A stretch of DNA of 47,491 nucleotides. Origin: an uncultured Cellvibrionales bacterium (GTDB lineage Bacteria > Pseudomonadota > Gammaproteobacteria > Pseudomonadales > Cellvibrionaceae). The first letter of the stretch is position 1; each line of letters starts with the position of its first letter. The notes under the pieces were generated by a model, which searched no databases, was not told where the DNA came from, and was given only the letters and a program-made list of their open reading frames with translations. A program made the translations under genes and the position numbers. This document shows, piece after piece, positions 20,243 through 39,935 of the stretch. Where the stretch lies: contig CAJWCA010000001.1 of assembly GCA_913020395.1 (NCBI GenBank), positions 1 through 47,491 of the forward strand, given 5' to 3'.

Positions 20243-21238
20243 TTAATAGATGACCGTTCTTTCCTGCTCTACAAACTGTTGAAAGCTCTGCTGCCAGTGA
20301 CCATCGGGCCAAAGTATGTCCATGGCGCCTTCTTCTGGATACCAAGCGCTTGTGTAGAGCGTACCCCAGCCGTGGGCCTGGGCGCTGGTGCGATAGAGCG
20401 GAGGCTGTAAAAACAGTTGCAGAAAATGCTCGTAATTTTGTCGGGGGTCCTGTTGCCGGCTGGCAATAAATTGTTCCCGCACACGGCTGTCTGCCAGTGT
20501 TTCATACAGGGCAACTTCCCTGGGGTTTTGGTGATTGGTTGCCCGTGGTGAATGGGTGATCCTGGCTTCTTTGTCCGGTGAGAGCATGACCGTCACAAAT
20601 TCACCCTGTCGGTCCAGAGCGGTAACATTGTATGACATCTGCACCGGAATTCGCTTTAGAACCGACACGGCTTCTTTGACCGTTTGGCAAAACTCAAGCA
20701 GATAACGCAGCACCAAGGTGATGGCAAAACCTCGATCCAGAACCCGCCGGCCGCCATAGGCCAGCGAGACTGCCAGCCCGTGTTCGTTCATGCCATCGAG
20801 TACTCCCCACAAACAGTCACTCATCGCCATGACACGTGTGCCGTTCCAGTTGCTTTGTAACAAGACGGATTCACACAGGCTTGCTGGAAAGTCGTAGTTG
20901 CGTACCAGTGCGCTTCTGTCTCTGGTCCACACGCCCTGAGAGCAGCCGGCCACAAACGCAGGGGGATCATAGAGACTGAGAAAACGGGCGCTAAGTTCGT
21001 CCGCCACACACCGCACAAGCAGGCGTTCGTAGGTGGGCACTAATTCAGGCATATGGGCTTTGAGCATATTCAGACCCCGGGTGTAATCGGGGCGGCGAGC
21101 CTCTCCATCACGCAAATACCAACGCAGATAGGCCTGTGCACTTTCCTGCCAGAGGTGTTCTATCGCAAGGCCGGGCCCGAGATCGCTAATTGCACGAAAG
21201 CGGGCCCGTGTGGGTGTCAGTGTAGAGTCGCTGATCAC
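20243..21238 (-). CDS. Peptidase C45 / acyl-CoA:6-APA acyltransferase-like Ntn-hydrolase
   Basis: A propeptide of about 98 aa is followed by FVAG|CSQGVW (Cys99 as the putative self-processing nucleophile), then RNYDF and [11 protein letters not shown] blocks typical of Ntn Cys hydrolases. Confidence 0.6.
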
Positions 21239-21242
21239 AGCG

Positions 21243-22154
21243 TCACACTGTATCGAGAGTGGTTACGTTTTTCGGCATGGCGAATTCTTTTTGACCGTTG
21301 ATGTCTTCTCGGCTGGGTTTGCATAGAGGGCCGAGGGATTGCAAATAACTGTCGTCCCAAATTTCACGGTTGTAGACCGCAAAATCTGCCTTGCGATCCC
21401 GGAAGCTCTTTAAGGGCTGGCCGAGGTGTAATATGCCCCGCTCACGCTGACGCCTGACCTGGTCGAGGTCGATCTCAATAGGTATAAATTCTTCCTGTGT
21501 TTGTGACTGGTGCAGTGCGCGCCCCGAGGGATCGATGACACAGCTGCGACCGTTGCCTCCGGCGCCCAGCCCGTTGATGTCAAACACATAAGCCTGAAAC
21601 ATCGCTGCACTGGCATGGGCGATATGTAGTTCTACTTCCCTGTCGATGGTGTTGGTTAACACCGGGTGAAGAATGACTTCGGCGCCTTTTGAGACCAAGG
21701 TGCGGGTGGTTTCGGGAAACCACATGTCATAACAAATGGATAAACCAAAACACCCCACCTCGGGCACATCGAATACCAGGCATTCATCGCCGCTGCTCAC
21801 GCCCTGTTCATAGGGCATAAACGGGAAGACTTTTCGATACCGCGTAACAATGTCGCCCTGGGGGTTAATCACAGGCAGCGTGTTGTATATCAATCCGTCA
21901 TTAAGCTCAAACATTGAACCCGGAATCAACCAGACTCCGTGCTGTTTTGCCATCGCCCTGAGCTGATCTTCCGCGTTGCCCGGCATCACTTGTGCGTGTT
22001 CAATGGAGGGACCAAATGGGGCCAATTCACTGAATACCACCATTTGAACCCAGGGGTGGAGGTGCATCAACATGTCGAGTCGCTGACCCATTTCACGCAG
22101 ATTGTTTTGAGTGGAAATGTGCATCTGCACACCGGCAATGGCAAAAGGTGTCAT
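21243..22154 (-). CDS. Carbon-nitrogen hydrolase (nitrilase superfamily amidase)
   Basis: The Glu-Lys-Cys triad sits in its usual contexts: VVFSELAPFG, YRKVFPF and GLSICYDMWFPE. Confidence 0.85.
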   Translation of the reverse strand: MTPFAIAGVQMHISTQNNLREMGQRLDMLMHLHPWVQMVVFSELAPFGPSIEHAQVMPGNAEDQLRAMAKQHGVWLIPGSMFELNDGLIYNTLPVINPQGDIVTRYRKVFPFMPYEQGVSSGDECLVFDVPEVGCFGLSICYDMWFPETTRTLVSKGAEVILHPVLTNTIDREVELHIAHASAAMFQAYVFDINGLGAGGNGRSCVIDPSGRALHQSQTQEEFIPIEIDLDQVRRQRERGILHLGQPLKSFRDRKADFAVYNREIWDDSYLQSLGPLCKPSREDINGQKEFAMPKNVTTLDTV

Positions 22155-22174
22155 TAATCGCTCCCGTTGTGTTA

Positions 22175-23614
22175 TTAGTTTATTTTGTAAAGCAGGCCGT
22201 CGTGTTTTTTCAGGTTCATGTCGGGCGCGGGCAGTGTGGTGCTGTAGGATTGCTTGATGGCATTGTTCCAGCTCACCGCACGTTCGTTAATTTGACCCTC
22301 GCTGTCTTGAACCCGACCGCGGGTTAATAAAATACCCAGGTCTGCACCTTTGTAGCTGTATTCCCCCGGTCCAAGTATTCTCAGGAAAAAACCTTCTGCC
22401 TGATCAGAGGCATTGCTCCAGTCTACCGAGCGGCGTAAAAATTCAATTTCGCCCTGTTCGTCAATGCGCCAAATTCCAGAGGCGGGGGCCGAGGTGATTA
22501 AACCCACTTTGTCGTGAGTTTGTTTCAATACCAGCGTGCTCCAGCTGTCGTAGTGCAACCAGCGCTCCTGTATCGCATCGAAATCCAGCTCATATTCAAC
22601 ATCAAAGAATTCTAACAAATGGAAAAATAACAGTGGCACACCACCGTATTTTTGGGTGATTAAATTGGTAACGGGCGAGGCGCCACTGATGCGCGGATTG
22701 ATTTCTCCCAGGTACACCTCTTCAGTGTCGCGATCGATAAGAAAGTCCATGCAGAAAGTACCTTTATACCCTTCTTTATAGAGCCGTTCTCCCAGAGCGC
22801 GGGTCATTTCTATGATGCGATTGCGTTGTGATTCAGTGAATACGGTAGCCGCGGTTTCATTCCCACACCAACCGCCTTTGTAAGGGGTTATGTCGGTGTG
22901 TCCAACCACTTCCATCATCACGGGCCCAACCAGTGTGCCGTATCGGGTCGCCACTCCCTCTACGGTTCCAGAAATGGGGTCAATACGTTTCATTATCTTC
23001 AGCTCTTCACCCACAATGTCCTTTTCATAACGTTGCCAGTCTTCGGCATTGTCGATAAAAAATGTGGTACGGCCAGAGTCGCCGTAAGGGGTTTGCACGA
23101 CCAATTGATCGCCAAGGCCCGCACTTTTTGCCTGCTTGCAAAGTGCCTCATAGGTATCTGCCTTGCCCAGCTTGTTGGGCACGCTGGCAACACCCGCTTC
23201 GTTGGCCAGTTGGGTGGTAAATATTTTGGAATCGATCCGGTCTCTCAACTCGGCCGGGGGCAGAGCGATTTCAAGGCCCAGTTTTTTCGCCAATACCTCT
23301 GTCTCCTCGTCAAACATCACTGTGAGGAGCTTTCCGCCGGGCGCTTGGCTGCGAATAAGGTTCACCACCTCTTTCTTTCTCAACAGGTAGTTGACAACAT
23401 CTACCATGGATTCAAATTCGGGTGCGTCTCGCTCGTCGGGCGTAAATACCCGATGGTGATGACTGTCAAAACAATCAAAATAGTTGATGTATTGTAAGGT
23501 AGGAACTAACTGTCCGAGTCCCAACACATTGAACGGCGATGCGGAAATAAAGTAAATCGGTGTTTTATTTTCGCTGAAGAAACGGTAGATATCATTGAGT
23601 CCTTTGAGCTTCAT
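22175..23614 (-). CDS. ATP-grasp family carboxylate-amine ligase with N-terminal pre-ATP-grasp domain; substrate unknown
   Basis: The central region, KIFTTQLANEAGVASVP...LVVQTPYGDSGRTTFFI...FCMDFLIDRDTEEVYLGEINPRISGA, shows an ATP-grasp fold pattern. I trimmed the start to the ATG at 23612-23614 (MKLKGLNDIY) with GAGGAA upstream. The track's longer ORF would overlap the upstream lipoprotein gene. Confidence 0.7.
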   Translation of the reverse strand: MKLKGLNDIYRFFSENKTPIYFISASPFNVLGLGQLVPTLQYINYFDCFDSHHHRVFTPDERDAPEFESMVDVVNYLLRKKEVVNLIRSQAPGGKLLTVMFDEETEVLAKKLGLEIALPPAELRDRIDSKIFTTQLANEAGVASVPNKLGKADTYEALCKQAKSAGLGDQLVVQTPYGDSGRTTFFIDNAEDWQRYEKDIVGEELKIMKRIDPISGTVEGVATRYGTLVGPVMMEVVGHTDITPYKGGWCGNETAATVFTESQRNRIIEMTRALGERLYKEGYKGTFCMDFLIDRDTEEVYLGEINPRISGASPVTNLITQKYGGVPLLFFHLLEFFDVEYELDFDAIQERWLHYDSWSTLVLKQTHDKVGLITSAPASGIWRIDEQGEIEFLRRSVDWSNASDQAEGFFLRILGPGEYSYKGADLGILLTRGRVQDSEGQINERAVSWNNAIKQSYSTTLPAPDMNLKKHDGLLYKIN

Positions 23615-23644
23615 GGTGTCATAATTCCTCGATTGATTGTCAGG

Positions 23645-23673
23645 TGTTAAATTATTGTTATTGTCTTGTTGTC
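23645..23673. promoter_or_regulatory. Three 11-bp-phased TGTT-type repeats upstream of the ATP-grasp gene
   Basis: TGTTAAA (23645), TGTTATT (23656) and TGTTGTC (23667), each start exactly 11 bp apart, lie in the 167-bp gap between the lipoprotein and ATP-grasp genes. This is a degenerate version of the TGTTAAC pairs found elsewhere in the locus. Confidence 0.35.
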
Positions 23674-23781
23674 GCTGTCTGTGAATGATTTGTCGCAGTA
23701 TTCTAAGTGAGCAGTGGGTAATGTGTTTCATTGACAAGAAACGGCGATACATAACCTGTTTTCCGGTGTTCCCATGGGCGC

Positions 23782-24360
23782 TCAAGTTTTTGCCGGTATA
23801 CATTGAATACCACCCTCGGGGTCTTCGGCAGAATTGCTGCTTGCTGTGGATGCTTTCAGTACTGATGGTTCAGTTAGTGCCGCGGGGGTAATTCGGGGAG
23901 TGGTGTTTGTTGCCAATGATTCCCGTTTGAAAGGTCTCCACTGACCCTGTTCTTTGATGTAAGCAACAAAACCATTGATATTTAAACTTGTTTCTCCATC
24001 AATCGTTTGAGCGTTCATTGCTGACAGACCGTCTTCTGAGATATTGAGTAAACGATGTAGTTGTCGCGTTTGAACAGAGTCCCACTCCTGTGACGACCAC
24101 TGACCAGAGAAGTGGAGCTGGGTAGTAAAATAAATCAGATATGCCGATTCACCTTGTTCACTGGTGTAGGGCTGACCGCCGCGTCTAGTAAAATCAACCA
24201 TCGATAACGCACCCTCGCCAAAGGTGTTATTCAGGCCAGACTGCAATTGTTCATTAATTGTTTTTCTATCGGGCCCCTGGCTGCACCCCGTGAGAAGCAG
24301 GCAGAGAGAAGCCAGCAGCAAAAAAAGCAAACTGGAAGACAAAACATTGGAACGGTTCAT
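23782..24360 (-). CDS. Lipoprotein of unknown function
   Basis: Signal peptide with the lipobox LLLTGC|S. No recognisable catalytic motif. It sits 9 nt downstream of gltS. Confidence 0.6.
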   Translation of the reverse strand: MNRSNVLSSSLLFLLLASLCLLLTGCSQGPDRKTINEQLQSGLNNTFGEGALSMVDFTRRGGQPYTSEQGESAYLIYFTTQLHFSGQWSSQEWDSVQTRQLHRLLNISEDGLSAMNAQTIDGETSLNINGFVAYIKEQGQWRPFKRESLATNTTPRITPAALTEPSVLKASTASSNSAEDPEGGIQCIPAKT

Positions 24361-24369
24361 TGTGTTTCC

Positions 24370-25590
24370 TCAGTGAACAAAGGGCAGCGCAAGATAAGAC
24401 TGAATAACCAATGCGTTGGTAATATCAATAAAAAAGGCCCCCACCATCGGCACAACTAAAAATGCCTGAGGGGAGGGGCCAAAACGGGAAACCAGTGATT
24501 CCATATTTGCCACGGCTGTAGGCGTGGCACCCAGACCAAAGCCACAGTGACCGCCCGCCATAATGGCGGCGTCATAGTTAGCACCCATCAACCGGAAGGT
24601 AATGAAGTAAGCAAACAGGGCAAGGGTGAATGTTTGCACCAGAATAATTAACAGAATGGGGCCTGCAAGATTGAGCAATTCCCAGATGCGCAGAGACATT
24701 AGTGCCATTGCCAAAAAGATCGAAAGCGCCATCGTGCCCCATAGGTCGACACAGGCTTTGCTGATTACATATTCACCTGAAAATTCGCAGGCATTGGTGA
24801 ATATAATGCCGAGGATCAGAGGTACAATAAATGAAGGAATAGGTACAGAATGCGCCTTTAACCATTCGTAGAGGTACGCACCTGCACTCATGCACATAAT
24901 TAAAATAAGCAGGGTTTCCATCATGCGCTTGGGCGTGACCAGGTCTTTGTCTTCCGGGTCGTAGGTGATGATGTCGTCGCGGTTGTGGTGGGCCTGATGA
25001 GAGGCGGGTTCAAGCGCGTGGCGGGCGATCAAGCGTTTGCACACTGGCCCTCCCAGCAATCCGCCCAGCACCAGGCCAAACGTTGCCGAGGCCATGGCGA
25101 TTTCCAACACACCCTGAAGATTGTGGCTGTCACCCAACATTTCGGCGTAAGTGGCGCCCGTGCCGTGCCCGCCAGAGAGTGTGATGGAACCGGCTATCAT
25201 GCCAAACAGGGGGTGCAGGTCTGTACTCAGGGCCATAGAAATACCGATGGCGTTTTGTACCATCAAATAGAGGCTGGCTACCAACAGGAAGAGAAAGACT
25301 TTGGGGCCGCCTTTCATCAAGAGTTTGAAGCTGGCCCCCAGCCCCACAGAGGTGAAAAACACGATCATTAAGGGTGTTTTTAAACTCAAGTCAAAATTCA
25401 GTGATACGTCAAACTGAGCGTAGAGCACCGCGCTGATCAGTGAGAATGCAATGCCTCCCACAACCGGTTCAGGAATATTATTGTCTTTAAGAAAGTGCAC
25501 TCGGTGATTGATGGCATAACCGGAAAACAGGATCAGCAGGGCAATGCCTATGGTTTCAAAAAAGCCAATATCAAAAGCCATAGCAAACAC
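24370..25590 (-). CDS. gltS: Sodium/glutamate symporter GltS
   Basis: About 400 aa and polytopic. The N-terminus ...ETIGIALLILFSGYAINHRV.FLKDNNIPEPVVGG and the overall pattern match the GltS family. Confidence 0.85.
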   Translation of the reverse strand: MFAMAFDIGFFETIGIALLILFSGYAINHRVHFLKDNNIPEPVVGGIAFSLISAVLYAQFDVSLNFDLSLKTPLMIVFFTSVGLGASFKLLMKGGPKVFLFLLVASLYLMVQNAIGISMALSTDLHPLFGMIAGSITLSGGHGTGATYAEMLGDSHNLQGVLEIAMASATFGLVLGGLLGGPVCKRLIARHALEPASHQAHHNRDDIITYDPEDKDLVTPKRMMETLLILIMCMSAGAYLYEWLKAHSVPIPSFIVPLILGIIFTNACEFSGEYVISKACVDLWGTMALSIFLAMALMSLRIWELLNLAGPILLIILVQTFTLALFAYFITFRLMGANYDAAIMAGGHCGFGLGATPTAVANMESLVSRFGPSPQAFLVVPMVGAFFIDITNALVIQSYLALPFVH

Positions 25591-25677: not shown

Positions 25678-25710
25678 TGTTAACAAGCTGTTAACCCGGC
25701 AGATGTTAAC
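25678..25710. promoter_or_regulatory. TGTTAAC direct repeats in the gltS/decarboxylase divergent promoter region
   Basis: TGTTAAC occurs at 25678, 25689 (+11) and 25704. Confidence 0.5.
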
Positions 25711-25811
25711 CGAAGGTTTACAATTTATTGCAAGGTTCTTACCCGGCTGTGAGTGAGATTGGGTATTCTTTTGGCTCCAAATCCCCTACCCAGTAATCAC
25801 TTGGTGACAAT

Positions 25812-28676: not shown

Positions 28677-29401
28677 ACCGCGCTCACCTCGGCGATAAAA
28701 ATGTAACCTGTGCCGTGGGCAGTATTGATGTATTTAGGATTGTCCCGGTCATCGCCAAGTTTCTTGCGAATCCGGGCAATCATGACATCAATCGTTCTGT
28801 CGGTTGGAAACCACTCTCTGCGTTCCATGCGGTTCATGATTTGATCCCGGCTAAGCACCGTGCCTGCGTGATTGATCAGGGTGTAGAGTAACTTGAATTC
28901 GCCCTCTGTCAGTTGAATGGACTCCTCGTCTGCCGTGAGCAGTCGGCGACCGACATGCAGAGTCCAACGATCAAAACTCACGGCGGTGGACGTTTTCAAG
29001 CCACTGGGGCCGGAGAGGGGGTTTGCCTTTACTCGAGACAGCAGGTTTTTGACTCGAGCAAACAGCTCTCGGGTGTTATAGGGTTTGGTGACGTAGTCAT
29101 CGGCGCCCAATTCGAGCCCCACAATACGATCGATATCGTCGTCTTTGTGTGTGACCAAAATGATGCCCACATCGGATTTATTGCGAATTTCGCGTGTCAG
29201 CGACAGCCCGTCTTTCCCGGGTAGATTGATATCCATCAGGATAACATCAACGGTATGTTGCTGAATGATCTTTTCAGCCTCATCGCCATTGACCGCCTTG
29301 TGAACGACGTAGTTTTCCTTTTCAAAATAGCTGGCAAGCAAGTTGAGGCTGGCTACTTCGTCTTCAACAATCAATATGCGTGGTGTCTGGTTGTCTGTCA
29401 T
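28673..29401 (-). CDS. OmpR/PhoB-family response regulator (receiver plus winged-helix DNA-binding domain)
   Basis: Motifs RILIVEDE, ILMDINLPGKDG, DDYVTKP and the C-terminal winged helix LTEGEFKLLYTL...RTIDVMIARIRKKL...GTGY. I prefer the ATG at 29399-29401 (MTDNQTP) over the GTG at 29422, but the choice is uncertain. Confidence 0.85.
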   Translation of the reverse strand: MTDNQTPRILIVEDEVASLNLLASYFEKENYVVHKAVNGDEAEKIIQQHTVDVILMDINLPGKDGLSLTREIRNKSDVGIILVTHKDDDIDRIVGLELGADDYVTKPYNTRELFARVKNLLSRVKANPLSGPSGLKTSTAVSFDRWTLHVGRRLLTADEESIQLTEGEFKLLYTLINHAGTVLSRDQIMNRMERREWFPTDRTIDVMIARIRKKLGDDRDNPKYINTAHGTGYIFIAEVSAV

Positions 29402-29415
29402 AGTAATAAAACGTC

Positions 29416-29454
29416 TGTTCACAATCTGTTAATAGTATAAGAGGCTTTGTTACA
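29416..29454. promoter_or_regulatory. TGTTCAC / TGTTAAT / TGTTACA phased repeats between the response-regulator gene and ggt-1
   Basis: TGTTCAC at 29416, TGTTAAT at 29427 (+11) and TGTTACA at 29448 (+21). Confidence 0.4.
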
Positions 29455-31585: not shown

Positions 31586-31603
31586 TGTTAACAACTCGTT
31601 AAC
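31586..31603. promoter_or_regulatory. TGTTAAC-N4-CGTTAAC repeat upstream of the second TonB receptor
   Basis: The sequence is cTGTTAACAActCGTTAACAAgg, with GTTAAC cores 11 bp apart, 156 bp upstream of the ATG at 31759. Confidence 0.5.
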
Positions 31604-31758: not shown

Positions 31759-34700
31759 ATGTTTAAAGCAAATAAATTAAGCCTTACAATTCTCGGTATT
31801 ATTTCGATGAATTCCACTCTGGCACAGAGTGTGAACGATGCCAATAATTCAGCCGAAGACCTCGATTTGATCCTCGAAGAGGTGGTGGTCACCGGCACCC
31901 ACATTAAGGGTGTAGATGTTGCAGGCGCACTGCCCGTTAGCATGTTGGACAGCGATGACCTCGATGCCATTGGCGCCTCAAGCACCGAAGAGTTGATAGC
32001 CGCTATTCCCCAGGCAGGCCAGGTAACTTTCAACAGCGACGATACCAGCACGTCTTCAAACAGTGTGCGGGGCGACGTTGGCTCTTTGAATCTCCGCGGA
32101 TTGGGCGCAGACAGCACGCTGGTTCTGGTGAACGGCCGCAGAATGGTAATGAATCCTTCCTCTTCTTCCGTTAACGGTGTGCCTGTTCAGTTTGTGAATA
32201 CCTCTATGTTGCCGGCGATGGGCATCGACCGGGTCGAAGTGCTACGGGATGGCGCTGCGGCGATCTACGGTACAGATGCCGTAGCGGGTGTAGCGAACTA
32301 CGTATTAGACACGGATTACGAAGGTTTTGAAGTGGCCGTTCGTCAAGGCGGTGCATCGGGTGAAAGCCTGAACGAAAACACAATTTCGGGCCGGGCTGGC
32401 TTCGAATTTAATGGCGGTCGCACACATGTCACTGTGTTTGGCAGTCGCTTTAATCGCTCGGGTATGGAGGCCAGCGAAGTGGAGTGGGCGGAGTCAAGTG
32501 ACTACCGCGAATCCGATAGAACACCCACTGATTTTATCGGCGATACCTCTCTCAGAAATTTGTCCACCTTCACCCCTTGGGGCCAATTCAATCTGGGTTC
32601 CATAGACTCGGCAACCGGCGCTTTTACGCCGGCGGGTGTATCGGGCATTGCCCGCAGTAGCGACGGTCGATTCCACTTGCAGCCTGAGGGCACCAGCGGT
32701 GGAACCTCTTTGGGTAATGGCATTGAAATTGATGACTCTACTTTGAACAGCGAACTGCGTTATAACATCAACGATCTGCGCATGCTTACCGGTGATATCA
32801 AGCGCAACAATGTCTTTGCGACCATGACACACGAGTTAGACAATGGCATTGAGATGTTTTCAGAAGCCTCTTATTACCAGTCTGATTACGCTTCGTATTT
32901 TGGCCCCAACGTCATTTCCGATGTGAACAAAATGTACATCCCCGCTGATTCCCACTACAACCCCTTTGGGCCGGTTGGCAGTGAACACAGAATGGCTGGG
33001 TTAGATCTTGCTGATGTGCCTGCTGAAGGTTTGAATGTGAAAGTGGATCGTCTGCGTCTTTACGACACAGGTCCAAGAACCATTGACGTTGAAGCGGACT
33101 CTTATCGTTTTGTCGGTGGATTGCGCGGTGAATTTGAAGGCTGGGATTGGGAGTCGGGTGTGTTTTATTCCGAAGCCAAGTCAACAGACTCTCAGTTGAG
33201 TGTGAGTCGCTCACGTTTTTATGAGGCGGTATCACGTACAACACCAGATGCCTACAACCCCTTCACGGGTGGTAACCCTGATGACGTTGCCAATGGAGAT
33301 CCCACCCCTGGTGGCGACGCTTCTGAGTTTACCGTGGATGTTGAACGCCACAACAAAACACGCCTAAGCGGTGCGGATTTTAAAATATCCACTGGATCTT
33401 TGTTTGCTTTGCCCGCGGGTGATGTAGGTGCTGCTTTTGGTATAGAGCAGCGTCGCGAAACCTATGACGACGATCGCGACCCTACACTGGATGGCACCAT
33501 CACCTTTACTCACCCATTAAGCGGTCAGTTCTTTGACAGTGACATTATGGGAGTGAGCGCGACTCCTGACACAGTGGGTAGCCGTGAAGTGTATTCAGCC
33601 TATGCAGAATTTATGGTTCCCATTATTGGTGATCATCAGAATATTCCCTTGGTAAAAAGCCTGAATGCACAACTGGCAATCCGGGGAGAAAACTACTCTG
33701 ATGTCGACGCCGATGTGGTGAAACCTAAGGTGGCAGTATCCTGGCGTCCGACCGACTGGCTGCAAGTTCGCAGTGCCTGGTCAAAAGGCTTTAGAGCACC
33801 AAACCTGGAAACGTTAAACTTGACCGTTCAGGAGCGTTTCAGCAACAACCAGGAAGACTTCCTTCGTTGTGCCACTGGCCAGGCTGCTGGCACCATAGAG
33901 GCTGATGTTGATGCTTGTTCCGCTTCCATCATTACACGCCGATTGGGCAACAGTGATTTGGAGCCTGAAGAGTCTGAAAACCTTACCTTCGGAGTCGTGA
34001 TTGAACCTACCTTTATTGAAGGTTTGACCGTGACCCTGGACTGGTGGGAAATTGAACAAGAAGGTGTTGTTGGGCTCTTTGGTCGTGACAATCACCTCCT
34101 GTTAGATCAGGCAATGCGCTTCCAGGGCAGCACCAACCCCGCCGTTGTACGGGCTGCGGCCACCGCTCAGGACCAGGCTGAAATGGATGCTTACAATGCG
34201 GCAAACAATACTAGTCTTGCCGCAGTGGGCAGCTTGCTTTACATCGATGATCAGTTCCTGAATTTGCAGCCACGTGCAATGCAGGGCACAGATATGAGCC
34301 TGACTTATCGTATTCCGGAAGGAGACTGGGGGCGTTTCACGCTTAAGTTTAACGCCGCTTACTTGATTAAATGGGACCAAGACGCGTCTTCGGATGTGAA
34401 TGCCCTGATGGAAGAGTTGAATGGCAACCCCTTGATCACCGGTGACGTGACCTCTGAAACAGTGGGCAGCCAGTTGTTGGACGAGAGCAAGCCACGCTGG
34501 AGAGCGAATTCCAGTTTGACTTGGAGTAAAGGACCCTGGCGCGCCGGTTTAAGTGCACGGTATGTGGGAGAGGTTTTTGACTACGATGTAGAAGCCGATG
34601 AGAACCCCGGTCAGCACCTTAAAATACCTTCGTGGTTAACCTTCAATACCTACGCAGACTATCGCGTTGAAGGTGGAGCGTTTGACAATACCCGTGTGAG

Positions 34701-34824
34701 ATTAGGTGTAAACAACCTGTCTGATGAAGAGCCACCACTGTTTGATGCCTCTGCGGGTTACAGCGCATCGCTGCATTCCAATCGGGGTCGCTATGTCTAC
34801 TTGGATATTAAGAAGTCGTTCTAA
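31759..34824 (+). CDS. TonB-dependent outer-membrane receptor (large, 1021 aa)
   Basis: Signal peptide, TonB box/plug LEEVVVTGTHIKG, RVEVLRDGAAAIYGTDAVAGVANY, a long barrel and the terminal ...YLDIKKSF. Confidence 0.9.
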   Translation: MFKANKLSLTILGIISMNSTLAQSVNDANNSAEDLDLILEEVVVTGTHIKGVDVAGALPVSMLDSDDLDAIGASSTEELIAAIPQAGQVTFNSDDTSTSSNSVRGDVGSLNLRGLGADSTLVLVNGRRMVMNPSSSSVNGVPVQFVNTSMLPAMGIDRVEVLRDGAAAIYGTDAVAGVANYVLDTDYEGFEVAVRQGGASGESLNENTISGRAGFEFNGGRTHVTVFGSRFNRSGMEASEVEWAESSDYRESDRTPTDFIGDTSLRNLSTFTPWGQFNLGSIDSATGAFTPAGVSGIARSSDGRFHLQPEGTSGGTSLGNGIEIDDSTLNSELRYNINDLRMLTGDIKRNNVFATMTHELDNGIEMFSEASYYQSDYASYFGPNVISDVNKMYIPADSHYNPFGPVGSEHRMAGLDLADVPAEGLNVKVDRLRLYDTGPRTIDVEADSYRFVGGLRGEFEGWDWESGVFYSEAKSTDSQLSVSRSRFYEAVSRTTPDAYNPFTGGNPDDVANGDPTPGGDASEFTVDVERHNKTRLSGADFKISTGSLFALPAGDVGAAFGIEQRRETYDDDRDPTLDGTITFTHPLSGQFFDSDIMGVSATPDTVGSREVYSAYAEFMVPIIGDHQNIPLVKSLNAQLAIRGENYSDVDADVVKPKVAVSWRPTDWLQVRSAWSKGFRAPNLETLNLTVQERFSNNQEDFLRCATGQAAGTIEADVDACSASIITRRLGNSDLEPEESENLTFGVVIEPTFIEGLTVTLDWWEIEQEGVVGLFGRDNHLLLDQAMRFQGSTNPAVVRAAATAQDQAEMDAYNAANNTSLAAVGSLLYIDDQFLNLQPRAMQGTDMSLTYRIPEGDWGRFTLKFNAAYLIKWDQDASSDVNALMEELNGNPLITGDVTSETVGSQLLDESKPRWRANSSLTWSKGPWRAGLSARYVGEVFDYDVEADENPGQHLKIPSWLTFNTYADYRVEGGAFDNTRVRLGVNNLSDEEPPLFDASAGYSASLHSNRGRYVYLDIKKSF

Positions 34825-34836
34825 AAGTAGATAGAT

Positions 34837-34867
34837 AAAAAAACGGGGCTTTATGCCCCGTTTTTTT
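34837..34867. terminator. Bidirectional Rho-independent terminator
   Basis: AAAAAAA-CGGGGC-TTTAT-GCCCCG-TTTTTTT lies between the convergent receptor gene (stop at 34824) and the binding-protein gene (stop at 34883). Confidence 0.85.
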
Positions 34868-34882: not shown

Positions 34883-35656
34883 CTATTGCCATTTCTCCGT
34901 GAATGCTTGAAGGGAGGCGAGCCTGGTGGAAAACAGGCGGCCGTGTGTGCCGTCCTCTTTCAAGGCTTCAAACGCACTGCGAAGTTTCTTTACCAGTGCT
35001 GGATCAGAATCCAGGCTCAGTGCCATATAGAGCCCGTTAACCACTCCGTCTATTTCTACTGCCGGTTTAATTTTTTGGCAATCGATCTCCGTTCGCTGGC
35101 AGAGTGGAAAAATGCCGCCGTCACTCATCGCAAACAAATCAACACGTTCCAGCATTAGTTTTTTTAGATTCTGTGCGCTGTTGTTAACAGGTTGAAGTTG
35201 CTCAAACCCTTTGTCCAGCAGCATCTCGTGATGAGCGTGATAATTCACAACGCCAATTTGGTAGGGGCGGGCATCACTCAGCGTTTGCAGCTGAATGTCA
35301 CTCCGGTCTTTAAGTTGGAACAGGTAGTAGCGAATGGGCACCAGGGCTCCAATCCAGATAAAGTCTTGCTCGCGCTTTTGAGTTCTAGCCAGGGGGTAAA
35401 TTAAAACGTTGGCCTGTTTTCTGCCATTGTGATAAGCCCTTCGCCAGGGTAGATAGTTTAATTGATAATCGATGCCTGCCTGTTTTAGTAAGAGTTCAAC
35501 AAAACGGGTGGCCTCGCCATCGCCGGGGTTTTCTTCCGACGCGCGGGTGATGGGGGTTGATTCTGTATTGACGGTGAGCAATGGGTCGGCCCCGAGGCTT
35601 GAGTGGGCACCAATGCTTAGAGACACGGCCAATGCGATAGCTGAAAATTGTTTCAT
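34883..35656 (-). CDS. Periplasmic solute-binding protein family 3-like, orphan, cotranscribed with the hybrid kinase
   Basis: Signal peptide MKQFSAIALAVSLSIGAHS and an SBP_bac_3-like two-lobe pattern. Its start lies 4 nt after the kinase stop. No ABC transporter genes are nearby. Confidence 0.7.
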   Translation of the reverse strand: MKQFSAIALAVSLSIGAHSSLGADPLLTVNTESTPITRASEENPGDGEATRFVELLLKQAGIDYQLNYLPWRRAYHNGRKQANVLIYPLARTQKREQDFIWIGALVPIRYYLFQLKDRSDIQLQTLSDARPYQIGVVNYHAHHEMLLDKGFEQLQPVNNSAQNLKKLMLERVDLFAMSDGGIFPLCQRTEIDCQKIKPAVEIDGVVNGLYMALSLDSDPALVKKLRSAFEALKEDGTHGRLFSTRLASLQAFTEKWQ

Positions 35657-35659
35657 AAC

Positions 35660-37978
35660 TTACTCGAGCTCGTTAAAAAAGGTATTTAAATTATCAAAAG
35701 TTTGTTTTTCCAGTTTGTCGATTCCCTGAAGGTATTCCGCCGTTTTGGCAATGTCCTTGTCGGCGGCTGCCGTTTCAATATTCGAGGCCATCTCTCTCAG
35801 GCTGGGCAGGCCAAAATTGGCGCACATTCCCGCAAGGGCATGTGCATGTTCTTCTAGACTGCCCAGGTCGCCTTCCTCCAGCGCTTGGTGCAGAGATTTA
35901 ATACGACCATTTGAGGAGTCTTGCGCCTCACTGTAGAGGTCTCGCAAGGTTTCACTGCCGAGATTCCTGTAGTGTTGTTCAATCAGTGTGATCTCGATCG
36001 TTTTGAGAGACGAGGGCTGTGATTCCGTTCGTTTTTTCAATGTTTCGGGGTCGATCACCTCTGCGAGTAGTTGATAAAGGTGATTCGCTTCAATGGGCTT
36101 GGTTGTCACTGCATTCATACCTGCCGCCAGACAGTCTTTTTTACGCTGTTCGGAAATATTGGCTGTGATGCCAATCACCGGAGTATTGGCGATGCTGGCT
36201 TTGCCCAGTTGGCGAATTTTTTGAGTCGCGGTAATGCCGTCCATCACCGGCATGTGGAGATCCATTAACACCACATCGACGGTATCCTGTTGAATGATTT
36301 CAATGGCTTCCGCGCCATTGTTGGCCAGCAATACTAGATGTTTCTCAGCTTCCAGTTGTCCCTTTGCCAGCTTCTGATTAATGCTGACATCATCGACCAC
36401 CAAAATTCTGAGTGGCGGTGTTTCATGGCCGGGAGTTTCATGCACTTCGTAGCTGAGGTCCTCAGTCATTTCAGTGAAAGGCAGGGAGAACCAGAAATGG
36501 CTGCCCTTGTCGGCCTCACTTTCGAAATCGATGTTGCCGTGTTGTTGGGAAACTATTTGTTTGCAAATGGATAGCCCCATGCCGGTGCCTCCAAACTGCC
36601 GACTGATAGATGCCCCGGCCTGAGTAAAAGGGTCAAAAATCTGTGTTTTGGCTGAGTCGGGTATGCCGATGCCGGTATCGATGACAGAAAACGTCAGAGT
36701 CAGCGCGCCGTCGGCATCCCGCACCTGGGAAACTTGTACTTTGACAGAGCCTTGAGTGGTAAATTTTACGGCGTTGGAAATCAGGTTTAGCAATACCTGG
36801 CGAAGTTTGTCCGGGTCTCCACCCAGGGTCTCGGGGATCTCAGAGTCAATATCCGCACTGAGCAATATATGTTTTTTTTCAGCCGAGGCGGAGAGTAGAA
36901 AGATAATACTGTTGACCAGACGGTGCGGATTGAAAGGTATATGTTCAAAGGACAGTTGGCTCTTTTCGTATTTGGAATAATCCAACACCGTGTTGATCAG
37001 GGCGAGCAGGGATTTTCCCGAGTCGAGAATCGCTTCAATGTATTCGCGTAGCCCCCGATCCTTATTTTGACTACTCAACAACTGTGTCATGCCTAAGATG
37101 CCGTTCATGGGTGTGCGTATTTCATGGCTCATCATGGCTAAAAAGTCTGACTTGGCCTGACTGGCCTGCAGGGCGGCGGTTTTCTCCAGGTCGAGTTCTC
37201 GGTTTTTCTCGTGTAGTTGCTGGGTGCGTGTCTGCACGAGCTTTTCCAGGTTGGTATTGGTTTCGATAATTTGCTGATGCTGAGCGTTGATGATTTCGAG
37301 GTGTTCATTAAAGCCATTGATTAAAACGCCAAATTCGTCCTGCCGGTGTGAGTCGGGCAAGGGAATACGTTCGTTAGTGGTGCCCTTTTGCAAGCGCGAG
37401 CTCGCATATAAAATCGATTTTGTGAGTGTAAAATAGAAAACGGCAATCAGAATTAGAGCCAGTAATAAATTTGATAACAGACCCGAAATTAGAACAACGA
37501 GCGCTCGCCGAATGAAAGTGGTTGCCGAAATCGCCGGATCAACTTCCACCCTTAATGTACCGATGACCTCGGCATTGACCCCCTCGTCTATGAGTTCGAG
37601 CTCAAGTGTTTCCACATTCCCGAACAGCCATCGGGTAAACGGTGAGGTGGCCGGTTGATCGGGGTTGTGTGCACTGCCCAGTGCGTTGCCAAAATTGTCG
37701 GTAATGGCCGCCAGAATGATCTGGGGGTTGCTCACCAGCCCTCGGGTAATCTGCAGCGCACCATTCTCGTCAATGTTATAAGCCGCATGGTAAGCGGCCC
37801 GGTTAGCGGTGGTCAGCGCTTTGTTAACCGAGATATTCATCTCGTTTCGCAGGGAAAAGTAATCGAGTCCGATTTGTACCGAACTGAAAATAACGCCCAG
37901 TATAAAGGCGACGATGACCGTGTTTTTGGCCTGCCGGTATGACAGGCTTTTTCTCAATGGAATAGCGGAACTGGGCAT
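35660..37978 (-). CDS. Hybrid sensor histidine kinase (2 TM + periplasmic domain, HAMP, HisKA, HATPase_c, REC, Hpt)
   Basis: H-box FLAMMSHEIRTPMNGILG; N/G boxes LLNLISNAVKFT, DTGIGIP and GGTGMGLSIC; receiver ILVVDD...VLMDLHMPVMDG; C-terminal Hpt HAHALAGMCANFG. Confidence 0.9.
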   Translation of the reverse strand: MPSSAIPLRKSLSYRQAKNTVIVAFILGVIFSSVQIGLDYFSLRNEMNISVNKALTTANRAAYHAAYNIDENGALQITRGLVSNPQIILAAITDNFGNALGSAHNPDQPATSPFTRWLFGNVETLELELIDEGVNAEVIGTLRVEVDPAISATTFIRRALVVLISGLLSNLLLALILIAVFYFTLTKSILYASSRLQKGTTNERIPLPDSHRQDEFGVLINGFNEHLEIINAQHQQIIETNTNLEKLVQTRTQQLHEKNRELDLEKTAALQASQAKSDFLAMMSHEIRTPMNGILGMTQLLSSQNKDRGLREYIEAILDSGKSLLALINTVLDYSKYEKSQLSFEHIPFNPHRLVNSIIFLLSASAEKKHILLSADIDSEIPETLGGDPDKLRQVLLNLISNAVKFTTQGSVKVQVSQVRDADGALTLTFSVIDTGIGIPDSAKTQIFDPFTQAGASISRQFGGTGMGLSICKQIVSQQHGNIDFESEADKGSHFWFSLPFTEMTEDLSYEVHETPGHETPPLRILVVDDVSINQKLAKGQLEAEKHLVLLANNGAEAIEIIQQDTVDVVLMDLHMPVMDGITATQKIRQLGKASIANTPVIGITANISEQRKKDCLAAGMNAVTTKPIEANHLYQLLAEVIDPETLKKRTESQPSSLKTIEITLIEQHYRNLGSETLRDLYSEAQDSSNGRIKSLHQALEEGDLGSLEEHAHALAGMCANFGLPSLREMASNIETAAADKDIAKTAEYLQGIDKLEKQTFDNLNTFFNELE

Positions 37979-38070
37979 ATTAGGGGTCTCTGGCCAATCC
38001 TGAAGGTGCTGTAGTCAGTGTAAAGCCTGACAGAGGTTTAGCAATAGCCAGCCCGGGGGCGCGAGGGCGG

Positions 38071-38130
38071 TGTTAACAGCCTGTTAACAATTTGATGCAT
38101 TCGTTGACCTGCCCGTTAATGGCGGGTTAC
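38071..38130. promoter_or_regulatory. Array of TGTTAAC-like repeats in the kinase/ggt-2 divergent region
   Basis: TGTTAAC at 38071 and 38082 (+11), followed by the weaker CGTTGAC (38102), CGTTAAT (38114) and GGGTTAC (38124) at steps of about 10-12 bp. Confidence 0.5.
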
Positions 38131-38222
38131 ACCCGCTTGATATAGTTAGATCTAGTCTACAACCTCCAGAGTTGACCTTGTTTGTCGGTTGCTCATGGCC
38201 TAGATATAAACGGGAAATTGTT

Positions 38223-39935
38223 GTGAAAAAGAACCTGTCTGTCATTGTTTTGTGTTGCCTGTTCTCTCTGAGCAGTCATGCCACTGTTCCTATCATTGAC
38301 CACAAAAGCATCTTTCATCCGGTAGTGGGGCGACAGGGCATGGTGGCCTCGCAAGAGGCACTGGCAAGCCAGGTCGGGCTTGAGATACTCGCCAAAGGCG
38401 GCAACGCGGTAGATGCAGCCGTAGGAGTGGGGTTTGCTCTGGCGGTAACATTGCCCAAAGCCGGAAATCTCGGCGGTGGTGGTTTTATGTTGGTGCACCT
38501 TGCCGAAAGTGGCAAGACACTGGCGCTGGATTATAGGGAGATGGCACCAGGACGGGCTGGAAAAGACATGTTTCTGGACTCGAAAGGGGATGTTGATCCA
38601 CACCTTTCTCGCAATACTTTCCAGTCCGCAGGTGTACCGGGCACGGTTGCCGGCCTGATTCACGCGCTGGAAGAATACGGCACTCTGTCGATCAAAGACG
38701 TGGTCGCGCCTGCCATAAAACTGGCTGACGAAGGTTTTGTGATCAGTCATGAGCTCGCTGCAGAATTGGAGAGCAGGCGCAAACAGCTGTCTCGCTCTGA
38801 AGCGGGGCGAAAGATATTTTTCAAACCCGATGGCAGCGCGTTTAAAGCCGGCGAGCGTTTAATTCAAAAAGACTTGGCCTGGTCTTTGAAGATGATTGCC
38901 AAGAACGGAGAAGATGCCTTCTATCGCGGCTCAATTGCCGATAAATTTGTAGCAGACTCGAAGCGGCACAAGGGTTTGATTGATGCGGATGACCTCAACA
39001 ATTATCACGTTGCCGAGAGAAAACCTGTGACAGGTGAATACCGGGGAATGACCGTGGTGTCGATGCCCCCACCCAGTTCCGGTGGTGTTCATGTTCAGCA
39101 AATGCTGAATGTGCTCAAAAACTACGACCTGAAAAAAATGGGGCACAACAGTGCCGACTACCTGCATGTGCTGGCCGAGTCGATGAAATATGCCTATGCC
39201 GACCGCAGTGAATATTTAGGTGACACGGACTTCGTTGATGTGCCCATTAAAGAATTAGTCTCTGCGCCGTACACCCAAAAAATTGCGGCAAAAATTTCCC
39301 TGGCACGAGCGAGGCCTTCCGACGAAATTAAACCTGGCAGTGAACAGCCATTTGAAAGCCACGATACCACACACTACTCGGTGGCAGATAAACACGGCAA
39401 TGTGGTATCCAATACTTATACTCTCAACTTCAGTTATGGCTCAGGCATTGTGATTGAAGGCACTGGCATTCTGTTGAATAACGAGATGGATGATTTCTCC
39501 GCAAAACCAGGGGTGCCAAATGCCTTTGGCTTGTTGGGTGGTGAAGCGAATGCCATCGAACCTCGCAAGCGCCCTTTGAGTGCAATGACGCCGGTGATTG
39601 TTCTTAAAGAAGATAAACCCTTTCTGGTTCTTGGCAGCCCCGGTGGCAGCAAGATAATTAATGTGGTTTTACAAGTCATTTTAAATGTTATTGATCACGG
39701 CATGAATATCGCGGAGGCAAGCTCTGTTCCCCGCATTCACCACCAGTGGTTTCCCGATGTATTAAATGTTGAGCGTGGAATCTCGCTTGATACCCTGCGT
39801 TTGTTGGAGCAAAAAGGGCATAAAATTCACACAACACGGGTGCTGGGCAGTACACAATCCATATTGCTTAATGATGAAAAAATGTACGGTTCTTCTGACC
39901 CCCGTCGCCCGGGAGCATTGACCGTTTCCTACTAA
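38223..39935 (+). CDS. ggt: Gamma-glutamyltranspeptidase, copy 2 (paralogue of 29585..31351)
   Basis: Same motif set: GMVASQ, GGNAVDAAVG, LPKAGNLGGGGFML, nucleophile HDTTHYSVAD, SPGGSKIINV. I prefer the GTG at 38223 (VKKNLSVIVLCCLFSLSSHA signal peptide) to the track's TTG at 38172, but the start is uncertain. Confidence 0.9.
   Translation: MKKNLSVIVLCCLFSLSSHATVPIIDHKSIFHPVVGRQGMVASQEALASQVGLEILAKGGNAVDAAVGVGFALAVTLPKAGNLGGGGFMLVHLAESGKTLALDYREMAPGRAGKDMFLDSKGDVDPHLSRNTFQSAGVPGTVAGLIHALEEYGTLSIKDVVAPAIKLADEGFVISHELAAELESRRKQLSRSEAGRKIFFKPDGSAFKAGERLIQKDLAWSLKMIAKNGEDAFYRGSIADKFVADSKRHKGLIDADDLNNYHVAERKPVTGEYRGMTVVSMPPPSSGGVHVQQMLNVLKNYDLKKMGHNSADYLHVLAESMKYAYADRSEYLGDTDFVDVPIKELVSAPYTQKIAAKISLARARPSDEIKPGSEQPFESHDTTHYSVADKHGNVVSNTYTLNFSYGSGIVIEGTGILLNNEMDDFSAKPGVPNAFGLLGGEANAIEPRKRPLSAMTPVIVLKEDKPFLVLGSPGGSKIINVVLQVILNVIDHGMNIAEASSVPRIHHQWFPDVLNVERGISLDTLRLLEQKGHKIHTTRVLGSTQSILLNDEKMYGSSDPRRPGALTVSY

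Follow-up and report, generated by a model that had tools for sequence, protein, structure and literature searches.

A TonB-dependent receptor, two gamma-glutamyltranspeptidase homologs and a TorS/TorR-like sensor system in a conserved locus of Cellvibrionales

Do genes that stand side by side and appear to deal with amide bonds of glutamate belong to one system, or is their proximity partly coincidental? The question is raised by a locus of about 20 kb (20243-39935) in contig CAJWCA010000001.1 of an uncultured Cellvibrionales bacterium, which we studied within a window of 47,491 nt (the whole stretch of DNA analyzed, to which all coordinates refer unless a related locus is named). The locus encodes two members of the gamma-glutamyltranspeptidase (GGT) family, a large TonB-dependent receptor (TBDR), a sensor system with its regulator, the Na+/glutamate symporter GltS, a pyridoxal phosphate (PLP) decarboxylase and three further enzymes predicted to be cytoplasmic. 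A first-pass annotation had united all of them in one system for the capture and dismantling of an extracellular gamma-glutamyl-linked compound. When the genes were checked with a map of open reading frames (ORFs) and with profile scans against Pfam and NCBIfam, every gene that it had named was found in its place, and one that it had left off, encoding a 192-aa lipoprotein (23782-24360, minus strand), was added. As for the single system, synteny and a common candidate operator strongly link gltS and the genes of the receptor, both GGTs and the sensor system; for the decarboxylase the evidence is suggestive, and for the remaining trio (an ATP-grasp protein, a C-N hydrolase and a C45 protein) it is ambiguous.

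The conserved core and its candidate operator

Six genes make up the core of the locus: an OmpR-family, TorR-like response regulator (28673-29422, minus strand, with the likely start at ATG 29401; PF00072 and PF00486), the first GGT-family enzyme (GGT1, a secreted N-terminal nucleophile (Ntn) hydrolase; 29585-31351, plus strand), the TBDR of 1021 aa (31759-34824, plus strand, 407 nt past ggt1), a secreted periplasmic-binding-protein-like sensor protein of 257 aa (34883-35656, minus strand), a TorS-like hybrid histidine kinase (35660-37978, minus strand) and the second enzyme (GGT2, a canonical secreted GGT; 38172-39935, plus strand, with the likely start at GTG 38223). The six are found as a group in seven or more further genomes or contigs of Cellvibrionales. 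The order regulator/GGT, TBDR, sensor protein, kinase/GGT is seen in Pseudomaricurvus alkylphenolicus (L001), which has the best named homolog of the receptor (76% identity), in a metagenome-assembled genome of the Cellvibrionaceae (L002), in a JGI contig (L005), in Sessilibacter corallicola (L022) and in the closest relative, L110, where the receptor is 80% identical and the core arrangement is kept; the arrangement was counted also in L093-L098. The bacterium of the window itself belongs in or near the Cellvibrionaceae. The regulator is 68-88% identical in L001, L005, L022, L091, L093, L096 and L098, and the homologs of the 257-aa protein (43-62% identical) always adjoin a hybrid kinase and a TBDR. 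When metagenomes were scanned with an alignment of this protein as query, the picture was the same: in all six contigs with a homolog at least 52% identical the kinase and the TBDR adjoin it, and GGT1, GGT2 and the regulator are also present wherever the contig is long enough. These data support all six genes as one conserved unit.

The left arm of the locus, beside the regulator, varies among genomes. Here it consists of gltS, the lipoprotein gene, the decarboxylase gene and the genes of the ATP-grasp, C-N hydrolase and C45 proteins; in P. alkylphenolicus it consists of gltS and a gene for a 1615-aa NAD-glutamate dehydrogenase, and in L005, L110, L093 and L096 of a third, distant GGT. gltS adjoins the core in a second genome, L001 (GltS 79% identical), and adjoins the TBDR in L004. 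The genes of the third GGT type (L005 5356-7107, L093 8962-10692, L096 16688-18418 and L110 92-1849) are convergent with the regulator; their products are about 31% identical to GGT1 and GGT2 and read Glu411/Thr432/Asp433 (E. coli numbering, as throughout), and upstream of the one in L005 no copy of the operator motif described below was seen.

When the intergenic regions were compared, tandem TGTTAAC repeats came to light. There are exactly three instances of the pattern GTTAAC-N{3,7}-GTTAAC in the window of 47.5 kb (0.00 expected from shuffled sequences), always with a spacer of 5 nt, and all three perfect sites are intergenic and within the locus: in the divergent gltS/decarboxylase region (O1, 25679-25695, accompanied at 25705-25721 by a copy with one mismatch), upstream of the TBDR gene at 156 nt from its start (O2, 31587-31603) and in the divergent kinase/ggt2 region (O3, 38072-38088). 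A weaker operator-like site with two mismatches is found between the regulator and ggt1 (29417-29433), and the window contains no copy with two or fewer mismatches outside 20-40 kb. Equivalents of O1 are present in the gltS/glutamate dehydrogenase intergenic region of L001 (1337 and 1374), those of O2 upstream of the TBDR in L001 (9694), L005 (9837), L022 (9779), L091 (12410) and L110 (4632), and those of O3 between the kinase and the GGT in L001 (17720), L005 (16318), L094 (3566), L096 (7446) and L098 (1209). One-mismatch sites between the regulator and GGT1 were found in L001 (7357), L005 (7905), L093 (8133) and L096 (15859), and the motif occupies equivalent positions also in L002, L022, L093-L098 and L110. 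With at most one mismatch allowed, there are 23 matches in 246 kb of loci with the sensor system versus 2 in 1.71 Mb of other loci (about 80-fold enrichment), and according to the gene tables 22 of the 23 sit in equivalent promoter regions of system genes. Taken together, the sites support one candidate operator common to all transcription units of the core and to the gltS/decarboxylase region. Its architecture, a 7-bp direct repeat with a 4-bp spacer and an 11-bp period (TGTTAAC-N4-TGTTAAC), is that typical of OmpR/PhoB-family sites such as the Pho and tor boxes, the half-site being similar to the tor box, and we predict that GTTAAC-N5-GTTAAC is likely the operator of the local regulator.

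A scan of the locus for consensus promoters and terminators gave counts close to those of shuffled sequences (24 vs 20.8 and 31 vs 23.9), and an Rfam scan found no riboswitch in the 407-nt gap between ggt1 and the TBDR gene. A 66-codon ORF in this gap was dropped from consideration, as it is not kept in the relatives. Between the convergent genes of the TBDR and the sensor protein, a hairpin with A7 and T7 flanks (34837-34867) reads AAAAAAACGGGGCTTTATGCCCCGTTTTTTT and is likely a bidirectional terminator.

The sensor system resembles TorS/TorR. The kinase contains HisKA, HATPase, REC and HPt domains, with two transmembrane segments around a periplasmic loop of about 110 aa, and together with the OmpR-family regulator it has the domain composition of TorS/TorR. 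TorR is the top NCBIfam model for the regulator (258 bits vs a cutoff of 275) and the TorS model TIGR02956 matches the kinase (416 bits vs 676.5), so that neither score attains the equivalog level. The 257-aa protein has a signal peptide and a weak, sub-threshold similarity to SBP_bac_3 (E = 0.005), and likewise a sub-threshold one to Phosphonate-bd; the profile scans gave no match to the TorT family, nor did a sequence search of the PDB give any match. Judged by its position, we infer that it acts as a TorT-type partner of the kinase.

The two GGTs and the wider receptor family

GGT1 and GGT2 are 48% identical, carry an N-terminal signal-like hydrophobic segment and score well above the cutoff of the family model TIGR00066 (MEROPS T03; 540 and 628 bits, respectively, vs 358); GGT2 additionally matches PRK09615 with 751 bits. 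The context of the catalytic and autoprocessing Thr391 is kept in both (ESADTTHYS in GGT1, ESHDTTHYS in GGT2; DTTHYS in common), and between Thr391 and Pro466 they align with E. coli GGT (2e0w) without gaps. The residues that bind the alpha-carboxylate (Arg114, Ser462 and Ser463) are represented by Arg/Ser/Thr in GGT1 and by Arg/Ser/Ala in GGT2. The two enzymes differ in the pocket for the alpha-amino group of the gamma-glutamyl donor, which is reportedly held by Asn411, Gln430 and Asp433: positions 411/430/432/433 are Ser/Gln/Asn/Asn in GGT1 (N411S, D432N and D433N) and Asn/Glu/Asp/Asp in GGT2, which thus retains the pocket essentially intact and has an E. coli-like lid loop (PGVPNAFGLLGG). 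The substitution D433N alone is said to give E. coli GGT a glutaryl-7-aminocephalosporanic acid (glutaryl-7-ACA) acylase activity. The loss of Asn411 and Asp433 from the alpha-amino pocket indicates that GGT1 is probably a GGT-family hydrolase rather than a canonical gamma-glutamyltranspeptidase. The first-pass annotation had described two periplasmic GGTs with an intact Thr nucleophile; the nucleophile is indeed present in both, but the equivalence of the two enzymes does not hold, as the pocket of GGT1 lacks Asp433.

The loss of this residue is widespread. Asp433 is absent from 27 of the 43 GGT genes in the collected loci, including all GGT1 orthologs, and outside Cellvibrionales only 2 of 24 GGTs keep it (L066_7972 and that of L004). 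The usual signature of the Asp433-less type is NNQ[IM]NN[FY], as opposed to NNEMDDF of the GGT2 type. From these residues we predict that the receptor-linked type uses donors in which the alpha-amino group is acylated, missing or placed differently, as in a D-isomer. In the TBDR-adjoining GGTs of L025, L040, L051, L071, L077 and L088, Arg114 is replaced by Tyr or Met, and such homologs may no longer recognize the glutamyl group.

The receptor itself exhibits a plug (PF07715, 54 bits) and a barrel (PF00593, 117 bits), a signal peptide and a TonB-box-like LEEVVVTG, i.e. the features of a TonB-dependent receptor. No substrate-specific NCBIfam model reaches its cutoff for this protein, and a sequence search of the PDB retrieved matches to the plug alone (36 bits at most). 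The 1021-aa TBDR is a member of an uncharacterized family, which we sought with one genome per species and found in at least 80 loci of Alpha- and Gammaproteobacteria and of Opitutaceae, with receptors 26-43% identical (the close relatives described above came from protein look-ups, while the matches listed in the family scan were all 43% identical or less). Partners encoded within about 7 kb of the receptor were counted in 86 loci, both by tblastn with the proteins of the window and the accessory proteins of relatives and by assumption-free clustering of the neighboring ORFs, and both procedures returned the same recurrent partners: an M14 peptidase of the deglutamylase-like kind (27 of the 86 loci), an SDF-family (glutamate/aspartate-type) symporter (27), a GGT (24), a LysR regulator (19), a DadA-like D-amino-acid dehydrogenase (14), a Cache-domain kinase with a sigma54-dependent regulator (14), an Amidohydro_3 protein of the D-aminoacylase family (13), a CapA/PGA_cap-like protein (4) and a LysA-like decarboxylase (2). 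For a gene with one to three copies per genome, 24 of 86 is far above the rough chance expectation of less than 1%, and the ggt-TBDR pairing reaches across phyla; conservation of the gene neighborhood, which the first-pass annotation had put forward as one check of its proposal, is seen for this pair as it is for the core.

Among these partners, the M14 enzymes are closest to deglutamylases of the cytosolic-carboxypeptidase type (PDB matches: 4a37, 3l2n and human CCP5) and match MpaA weakly (24 bits vs a cutoff of 157), while the CapA-like proteins match only the model for the peptide C-terminal epimerase MslH. The pair of Cache-domain kinase and sigma54-dependent regulator resembles the acidic-amino-acid sensor AauSR. 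What the partners have in common is that they would free glutamate from a peptide-like substrate, probably one with D-residues, and take it up.

GltS, the decarboxylase and the ATP-grasp module

GltS (24370-25590, minus strand) passes the equivalog cutoff of TIGR00210 (452 bits vs 311; PF03616: 434 bits) and is the sole inner-membrane carrier encoded in the locus. The gene of the 192-aa lipoprotein (lipobox LLTGC) begins 9 nt downstream of it. The lipoprotein has no match in Pfam or NCBIfam and is 26% identical to the N-terminal part of a 510-aa NMT1_3 lipoprotein encoded after gltS in Porticoccaceae LTM1 (L004 7413-8945); in P. alkylphenolicus a gene for 162 aa comes after gltS (L001 1-34). 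It is possible that the lipoprotein is a partner protein of GltS. Export signals were predicted for the lipoprotein, both GGTs, the TBDR and the 257-aa sensor protein, and none for the decarboxylase, ATP-grasp, C-N hydrolase or C45 proteins.

The decarboxylase (25812-28676, plus strand) is a 954-aa, long-form PLP enzyme of the Orn/Lys/Arg family (OKR_DC_1; PF01276, 259 bits). All NCBIfam equivalogs for lysine, arginine and ornithine decarboxylases score far below their cutoffs (the best one, LdcC, 216 bits vs 968), and the best solved relative is PDB 9n0n ("Probable amino acid decarboxylase", 947 aa; 834 bits). By sequence, the enzyme belongs with 9n0n to a separate long-form clade, apart from LdcI/LdcC, AdiA and SpeF. 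Its orthologs in L008 (79% identical) and L091 (58%) are each preceded by the operator motif. In three genomes the decarboxylase thus appears to be a member of the regulon, and the trio accompanies it.

The remaining three genes lie on the minus strand. The ATP-grasp protein (22175-23614, within an ORF that extends to 23803) matches NF005096 with 670 bits vs a cutoff of 684; since its homologs comprise 479-484 aa, the real start is ATG 23614, which gives a protein of 479 aa. The first-pass annotation had called it an ATP-grasp ligase, of which the first half is retained: its AlphaFold model (pLDDT 88) retrieves biotin carboxylases and N5-carboxyaminoimidazole ribonucleotide synthase (PurK) as the top Foldseek matches (TM-score ~0.6, 12-16% identity), and no biotinyl or carboxyltransferase domain is encoded in this locus or in five related ones. 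The modeled fold thus suggests a biotin-carboxylase/PurK-like protein and does not by itself point to any given substrate. The C-N hydrolase (21243-22154; PF00795, 105 bits) is distantly Nit2/omega-amidase-like, with mouse Nit2 (72 bits) as the best solved relative, and its orthologs in L010, L091 and L092 (61-67% identical) adjoin the ATP-grasp gene. The C45 (AAT-family) Ntn hydrolase/acyltransferase (20243-21238; PF03417, 105 bits; NF040521, 129 bits) has a Gly-Cys autoprocessing site, GCSQ, that is invariant in six homologs; a sequence search of the PDB gave no match.

The ATP-grasp family is widespread in marine bacteria and is nearly always encoded beside a C45 protein and an amidase. The arrangements found are decarboxylase / ATP-grasp-C45 in L008, amidase-C45-ATP-grasp in L009 (P. 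alkylphenolicus, on a contig other than that of the core), C-N hydrolase, TRAP transporter, ATP-grasp and C45 in L010 (Roseobacter), and C45-C-N hydrolase / ATP-grasp in L092 (Colwellia-like). L091, from a 6.45-Mb genome, contains a decarboxylase-ATP-grasp operon, then C45-C-N hydrolase and a TBDR of the same family (42% identical), beyond which orthologs of the 257-aa protein (47%), the kinase (50%) and the regulator (68%) are encoded. One-mismatch copies of the operator precede the decarboxylase and occupy the C-N hydrolase/TBDR intergenic region in L091, and one lies in the decarboxylase/ATP-grasp intergenic region of L008; the decarboxylase-less loci L009, L010 and L092 have none. Next to the decarboxylase gene of L091 (2824-5570), a gene for an NhaC-family transporter is seemingly split (two tblastn segments, two called genes), with a DDE_3 transposase gene beside it. 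Occurring elsewhere and missing from the closest relatives of the core, L110 and L005, the decarboxylase and the trio form a separable module. Because the sites are in divergent positions and the gap of 167 nt between the lipoprotein and ATP-grasp genes is motif-free, the control of the trio is ambiguous in each genome. The module is an accessory cytoplasmic branch outside the core, with a link to the regulon that is real in some genomes.

The rest of the window contains several features outside the locus. A methylamine/aralkylamine-dehydrogenase-type (mau-like) cluster (6427-10240, minus strand) comprises the genes of the heavy chain (9074-10240), MauE (8528-9067), a thioredoxin-like protein (7915-8535), the light chain (7339-7905) and a cytochrome c (6854-7342). 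It is followed by a second, unrelated uptake locus (10387-18376) with a TetR regulator, a 787-aa TBDR (11230-13593), two AMP-binding enzymes of the acyl-CoA-ligase type and an aldehyde dehydrogenase. On the other side, a perfect 16-bp inverted repeat with a 17-nt loop (39960-40008; GCTACTATAATTGAGC ... GCTCAATTATAGTAGC), which may be a terminator or a protein-binding site, lies between ggt2 and a gene for a methyl-accepting chemotaxis protein (40032-41180). The latter gene was considered as a member of the system and rejected: it is absent from all related loci and is parted from ggt2 by the repeat. Further on are a predicted 471-aa lipoprotein with a Gly/Ser-rich linker past the lipobox and no match in Pfam or NCBIfam (41177-42592, minus strand), a bacterial small signal recognition particle RNA (44278-44375, plus strand; 76.8 bits vs a gathering score of 40), which is the sole Rfam match in the window, and an unusually long ORF for a LysR-type regulator of 418 aa with two HTH_1 matches (46026-47282, minus strand), which could result from a mis-called start or a duplicated DNA-binding domain.

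Proposed mechanism, candidate substrates and known systems

From the gene content, the synteny, the distribution of the motif and the active-site substitutions we propose a mechanism in which the binding of the motif by the regulator, the direction of regulation, the class of the substrate and the order of the enzymes are predicted. The secreted binding-protein-like protein and the TorS-like kinase would sense a periplasmic ligand, upon which the phosphorylated OmpR/TorR-like regulator would bind the TGTTAAC-N4-TGTTAAC repeats and control four promoter regions (regulator/ggt1, TBDR, kinase/ggt2 and gltS/decarboxylase), activating the TBDR gene, ggt1, ggt2 and the gltS/decarboxylase region. The TBDR would import a substrate too large or too scarce for porins, and in the periplasm GGT1 and GGT2 would split its gamma-glutamyl-type amide bonds: GGT1 would take donors with the alpha-amino group acylated, absent or D-configured, and GGT2, which as a canonical enzyme would need a free alpha-amino group on the donor, would finish the free gamma-glutamyl products. 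GltS, which in E. coli also carries D-glutamate, would bring the released glutamate into the cell. We favor, with reasonable though incomplete confidence, the interpretation of the core as one regulon for the acquisition of a glutamate-yielding amide compound; whether all ~20 kb are one pathway is roughly a coin-flip.

Several observations weigh against this interpretation. The motif lies in divergent intergenic regions, so that its position leaves both flanking genes as possible targets. The locus encodes no transporter for any product other than glutamate. A receptor subclade of 14 loci is accompanied by the SDF symporter and the Cache-domain kinase/sigma54-dependent regulator pair only, without any hydrolase, and free acidic amino acids, or some other compound, might hence be what the receptor family imports. 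In L091 the receptor, sensor system and module are all present, and there is no GGT within 9 kb. Both GGTs keep a segment of the length of the lid loop, where the Bacillus enzyme 4y23 is gapped; Bacillus GGTs that hydrolyze poly-gamma-glutamate have no lid loop, and the retained segment is a weak argument against long polymers as a direct substrate of these GGTs. The module is found in L008, L009, L010 and L092 without a GGT, this receptor or this sensor, and the motif-free gap of 167 nt upstream of the ATP-grasp gene weakens the case for its co-transcription with gltS.

The observations on the module also favor the rival explanation that survives best, according to which the system consists of no more than the six-gene core and perhaps gltS, while the decarboxylase and the trio are unrelated neighbors, for instance involved in the catabolism of a different organic-acid amide, and the composite is partly coincidental. 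In the four loci just named the pair of ATP-grasp and C45 genes is accompanied by a C-N hydrolase or an amidase, in two of them (L010 and L092) with adjoining TRAP transporters, and in P. alkylphenolicus the pair sits on a contig apart from the core and has no operator motif. The absence of the module from L110 and L005 fits this explanation as well. On the other hand, in L091 the module directly adjoins a TBDR of this family and orthologs of the sensor, kinase and regulator (47-68% identical) and has the motif at two spots, the motif is present in the decarboxylase/ATP-grasp intergenic region of L008, and in the window it is present in the gltS/decarboxylase region. We consider such a mosaic rather unlikely, though a serious contender. 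The suggestion of the first-pass annotation that the cytoplasmic enzymes handle the non-glutamate moiety has found no support: GltS is the only carrier, and in P. alkylphenolicus the position of the decarboxylase is taken by a catabolic NAD-glutamate dehydrogenase.

The next rival concerns the substrate. Periplasmic GGT serves the scavenging of glutathione-type compounds in E. coli, Francisella and Neisseria, and here, too, glutathione, its oxidized form (GSSG) or gamma-Glu-Cys could be imported and split by GGT into glutamate and Cys-Gly, as sources of cysteine/sulfur or glutamate. GGT2 is close enough to E. coli GGT for this role (the PRK09615 score, the lid loop, Asn411 and Asp433 all agree), and GltS, with the NAD-glutamate dehydrogenase of L001, fits the use of glutamate. 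The substrate fits GGT2 only, however: the recurrent TBDR-adjoining GGT is the Asp433-less one, to which donors with a free alpha-amino group such as glutathione would be expected to bind poorly. Furthermore, the 86 neighborhoods examined show no recurrent gene for a Cys-Gly dipeptidase, a cysteine/cystine carrier or sulfur metabolism, and the partners that do recur (the M14 peptidase, the D-amino-acid dehydrogenase, the D-aminoacylase-family amidohydrolase, the LysA-like decarboxylase and the CapA/MslH-like protein) point to glutamyl peptides with D-amino acids, which makes glutathione scavenging an improbable function of the locus. A substrate without any gamma-glutamyl group, with the receptor importing free acidic amino acids or an unrelated compound and the Asp433-less GGTs acting as amidases of the glutaryl/cephalosporin-acylase type, would account for the 14 hydrolase-free loci, for the lack of Arg114 in several TBDR-adjoining GGT homologs and for the lack of a GGT in L091, but is very improbable in view of the operator motif shared by the canonical GGT2 and the TBDR in the window and in the Cellvibrionales relatives, of Arg114, Gln430 and Ser462 kept in GGT1, and of the glutamate-specific carrier and the glutamate dehydrogenase linked to the core.

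If the substrate is a gamma-glutamyl compound, as we propose, the weights that we infer for its possible classes are as follows. Peptidoglycan-type peptides with a blocked N-terminus and a gamma-D-glutamyl bond, e.g. L-Ala-gamma-D-Glu-mDAP (mDAP, meso-diaminopimelate), come first, although with a likelihood somewhat short of even. Such a substrate would explain the Asp433-less GGT and its apparent interchangeability with the M14 peptidases (the parallel being MpaA). It would also account for the D-aminoacylase-family amidohydrolase and the D-amino-acid dehydrogenase, and likewise for the LysA-like decarboxylase and the putative C-terminal epimerase. What speaks against it is that the neighborhoods contain no recurrent muramoyl-alanine amidase or other gene specific to peptidoglycan. 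Oligo-gamma-glutamate is a possible but less likely second. As an oligo- or poly-gamma-glutamate substrate it would explain the deglutamylase-like M14 peptidases, the CapA-like proteins, the glutamate carriers and the glutamate dehydrogenase, and it leaves the diamino-acid-type decarboxylases unexplained. Glutathione-type compounds and all other substrates deserve equally little weight; siderophores and microcystins were also considered, and nothing specific backs either. We tentatively speculate, well aware that the odds are against so broad a statement, that the loci represent a widespread class of TonB-dependent uptake of N-blocked or D-gamma-glutamyl peptides (stem peptides or oligo/poly-gamma-glutamate), whose key enzyme, a natural Asp433-less GGT, would be the physiological counterpart of a "class IV cephalosporin acylase", and which in Cellvibrionales would be controlled by a TorSTR-like sensor via TGTTAAC-N4-TGTTAAC.

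The known systems that come closest share parts of this design. Like the GGTs of E. coli and Bacillus subtilis, both enzymes of the window are full-length T03 Ntn hydrolases with a signal sequence and the DTTHYS threonine, GGT2 keeps the substrate-binding residues and the lid loop of the E. coli enzyme, and the products would feed the uptake of amino acids; unlike them, the window enzymes are embedded in a locus with a receptor and a sensor, and GGT1 has the substitutions N411S, D432N and D433N. Bacillus degrades poly-gamma-glutamate with a lid-less GGT, PgdS and PghP-type hydrolases, whereas neither window enzyme lacks the lid-loop segment and no endo-hydrolase of the NlpC/P60 or PghP type is encoded in the window. 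With the class IV cephalosporin (glutaryl-7-ACA) acylases and the D433N variant of E. coli GGT, GGT1 and the other TBDR-adjoining GGTs share an Asn or another non-acidic residue at position 433, a change that reportedly allows GGT to use acyl donors lacking an alpha-amino group, but they are natural enzymes in a conserved uptake locus, neither engineered nor industrial, and known here from their sequences. The decarboxylase aligns with PDB 9n0n/9n0o over residues 21-922, with the long N-terminal extension included.

In E. coli catabolism of the murein tripeptide (MpaA, YcjG and PepD), an M14 enzyme cuts the N-blocked gamma-D-Glu-mDAP bond and the resulting L-Ala-D-Glu is then handled. The relatives of our locus encode comparable functions, namely M14 peptidases, a CapA/MslH-like putative epimerase, D-aminoacylase-family amidohydrolases, DadA-like dehydrogenases and LysA-like decarboxylases, but these parallels are found in the relatives and not in the window, and the processing would be periplasmic and the import TonB-dependent. 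Profile scans of the window detected none of MpaA, YcjG, PepD, AmpG, Opp/MppA and Mpl, nor any of the enzymes that recycle peptidoglycan peptides (MpaA, YcjG, LdcA, AmpD and Mpl).

The TMAO-sensing TorS/TorT/TorR system of E. coli follows the same logic, with a periplasmic binding protein, an OmpR-family regulator and a hybrid kinase whose domains are HisKA, HATPase, REC and HPt; among the NCBIfam models, TorS and TorR score best for the proteins of the window, and the candidate operator, like the tor boxes (which read CTGTTCATAT), consists of tandem direct repeats starting with CTGTT. The differences are the scores under the equivalog cutoffs, a binding protein that is weakly SBP_bac_3-like rather than TorT-like, and a regulon of uptake and hydrolysis without a reductase. 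Among the known TonB-dependent utilization loci, the CUT loci of Xanthomonas, the MalA and NagA loci of Caulobacter and the SusC/D polysaccharide utilization loci of Bacteroidota also group a TBDR with hydrolases of the periplasm, a carrier in the inner membrane and a sensor and regulator of their own; here, in contrast, the hydrolases are Ntn amidases (GGT) instead of glycoside hydrolases, there is no SusD, and the predicted substrate is an amino-acid amide or peptide, not a glycan.

Thus the parts are all of known kinds (GGT, TBDR, GltS, a TorSTR-like sensor and a utilization locus centered on a TBDR), but we know of no description of a TBDR dedicated to a GGT-processed substrate, of the systematic pairing of this receptor family with Asp433-less GGTs or of the operator. 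To our knowledge, no natural role has been established for bacterial GGT paralogs and GGT-like "cephalosporin acylases", and their conserved link to a dedicated outer-membrane importer gives them one that can be tested, all the more so as the predicted operator and the small sensor protein make the system open to simple experiments. If the substrate is derived from peptidoglycan or is poly-gamma-glutamate, the locus would provide marine and soil Proteobacteria with a route to harvest dissolved organic nitrogen rich in D-glutamate.

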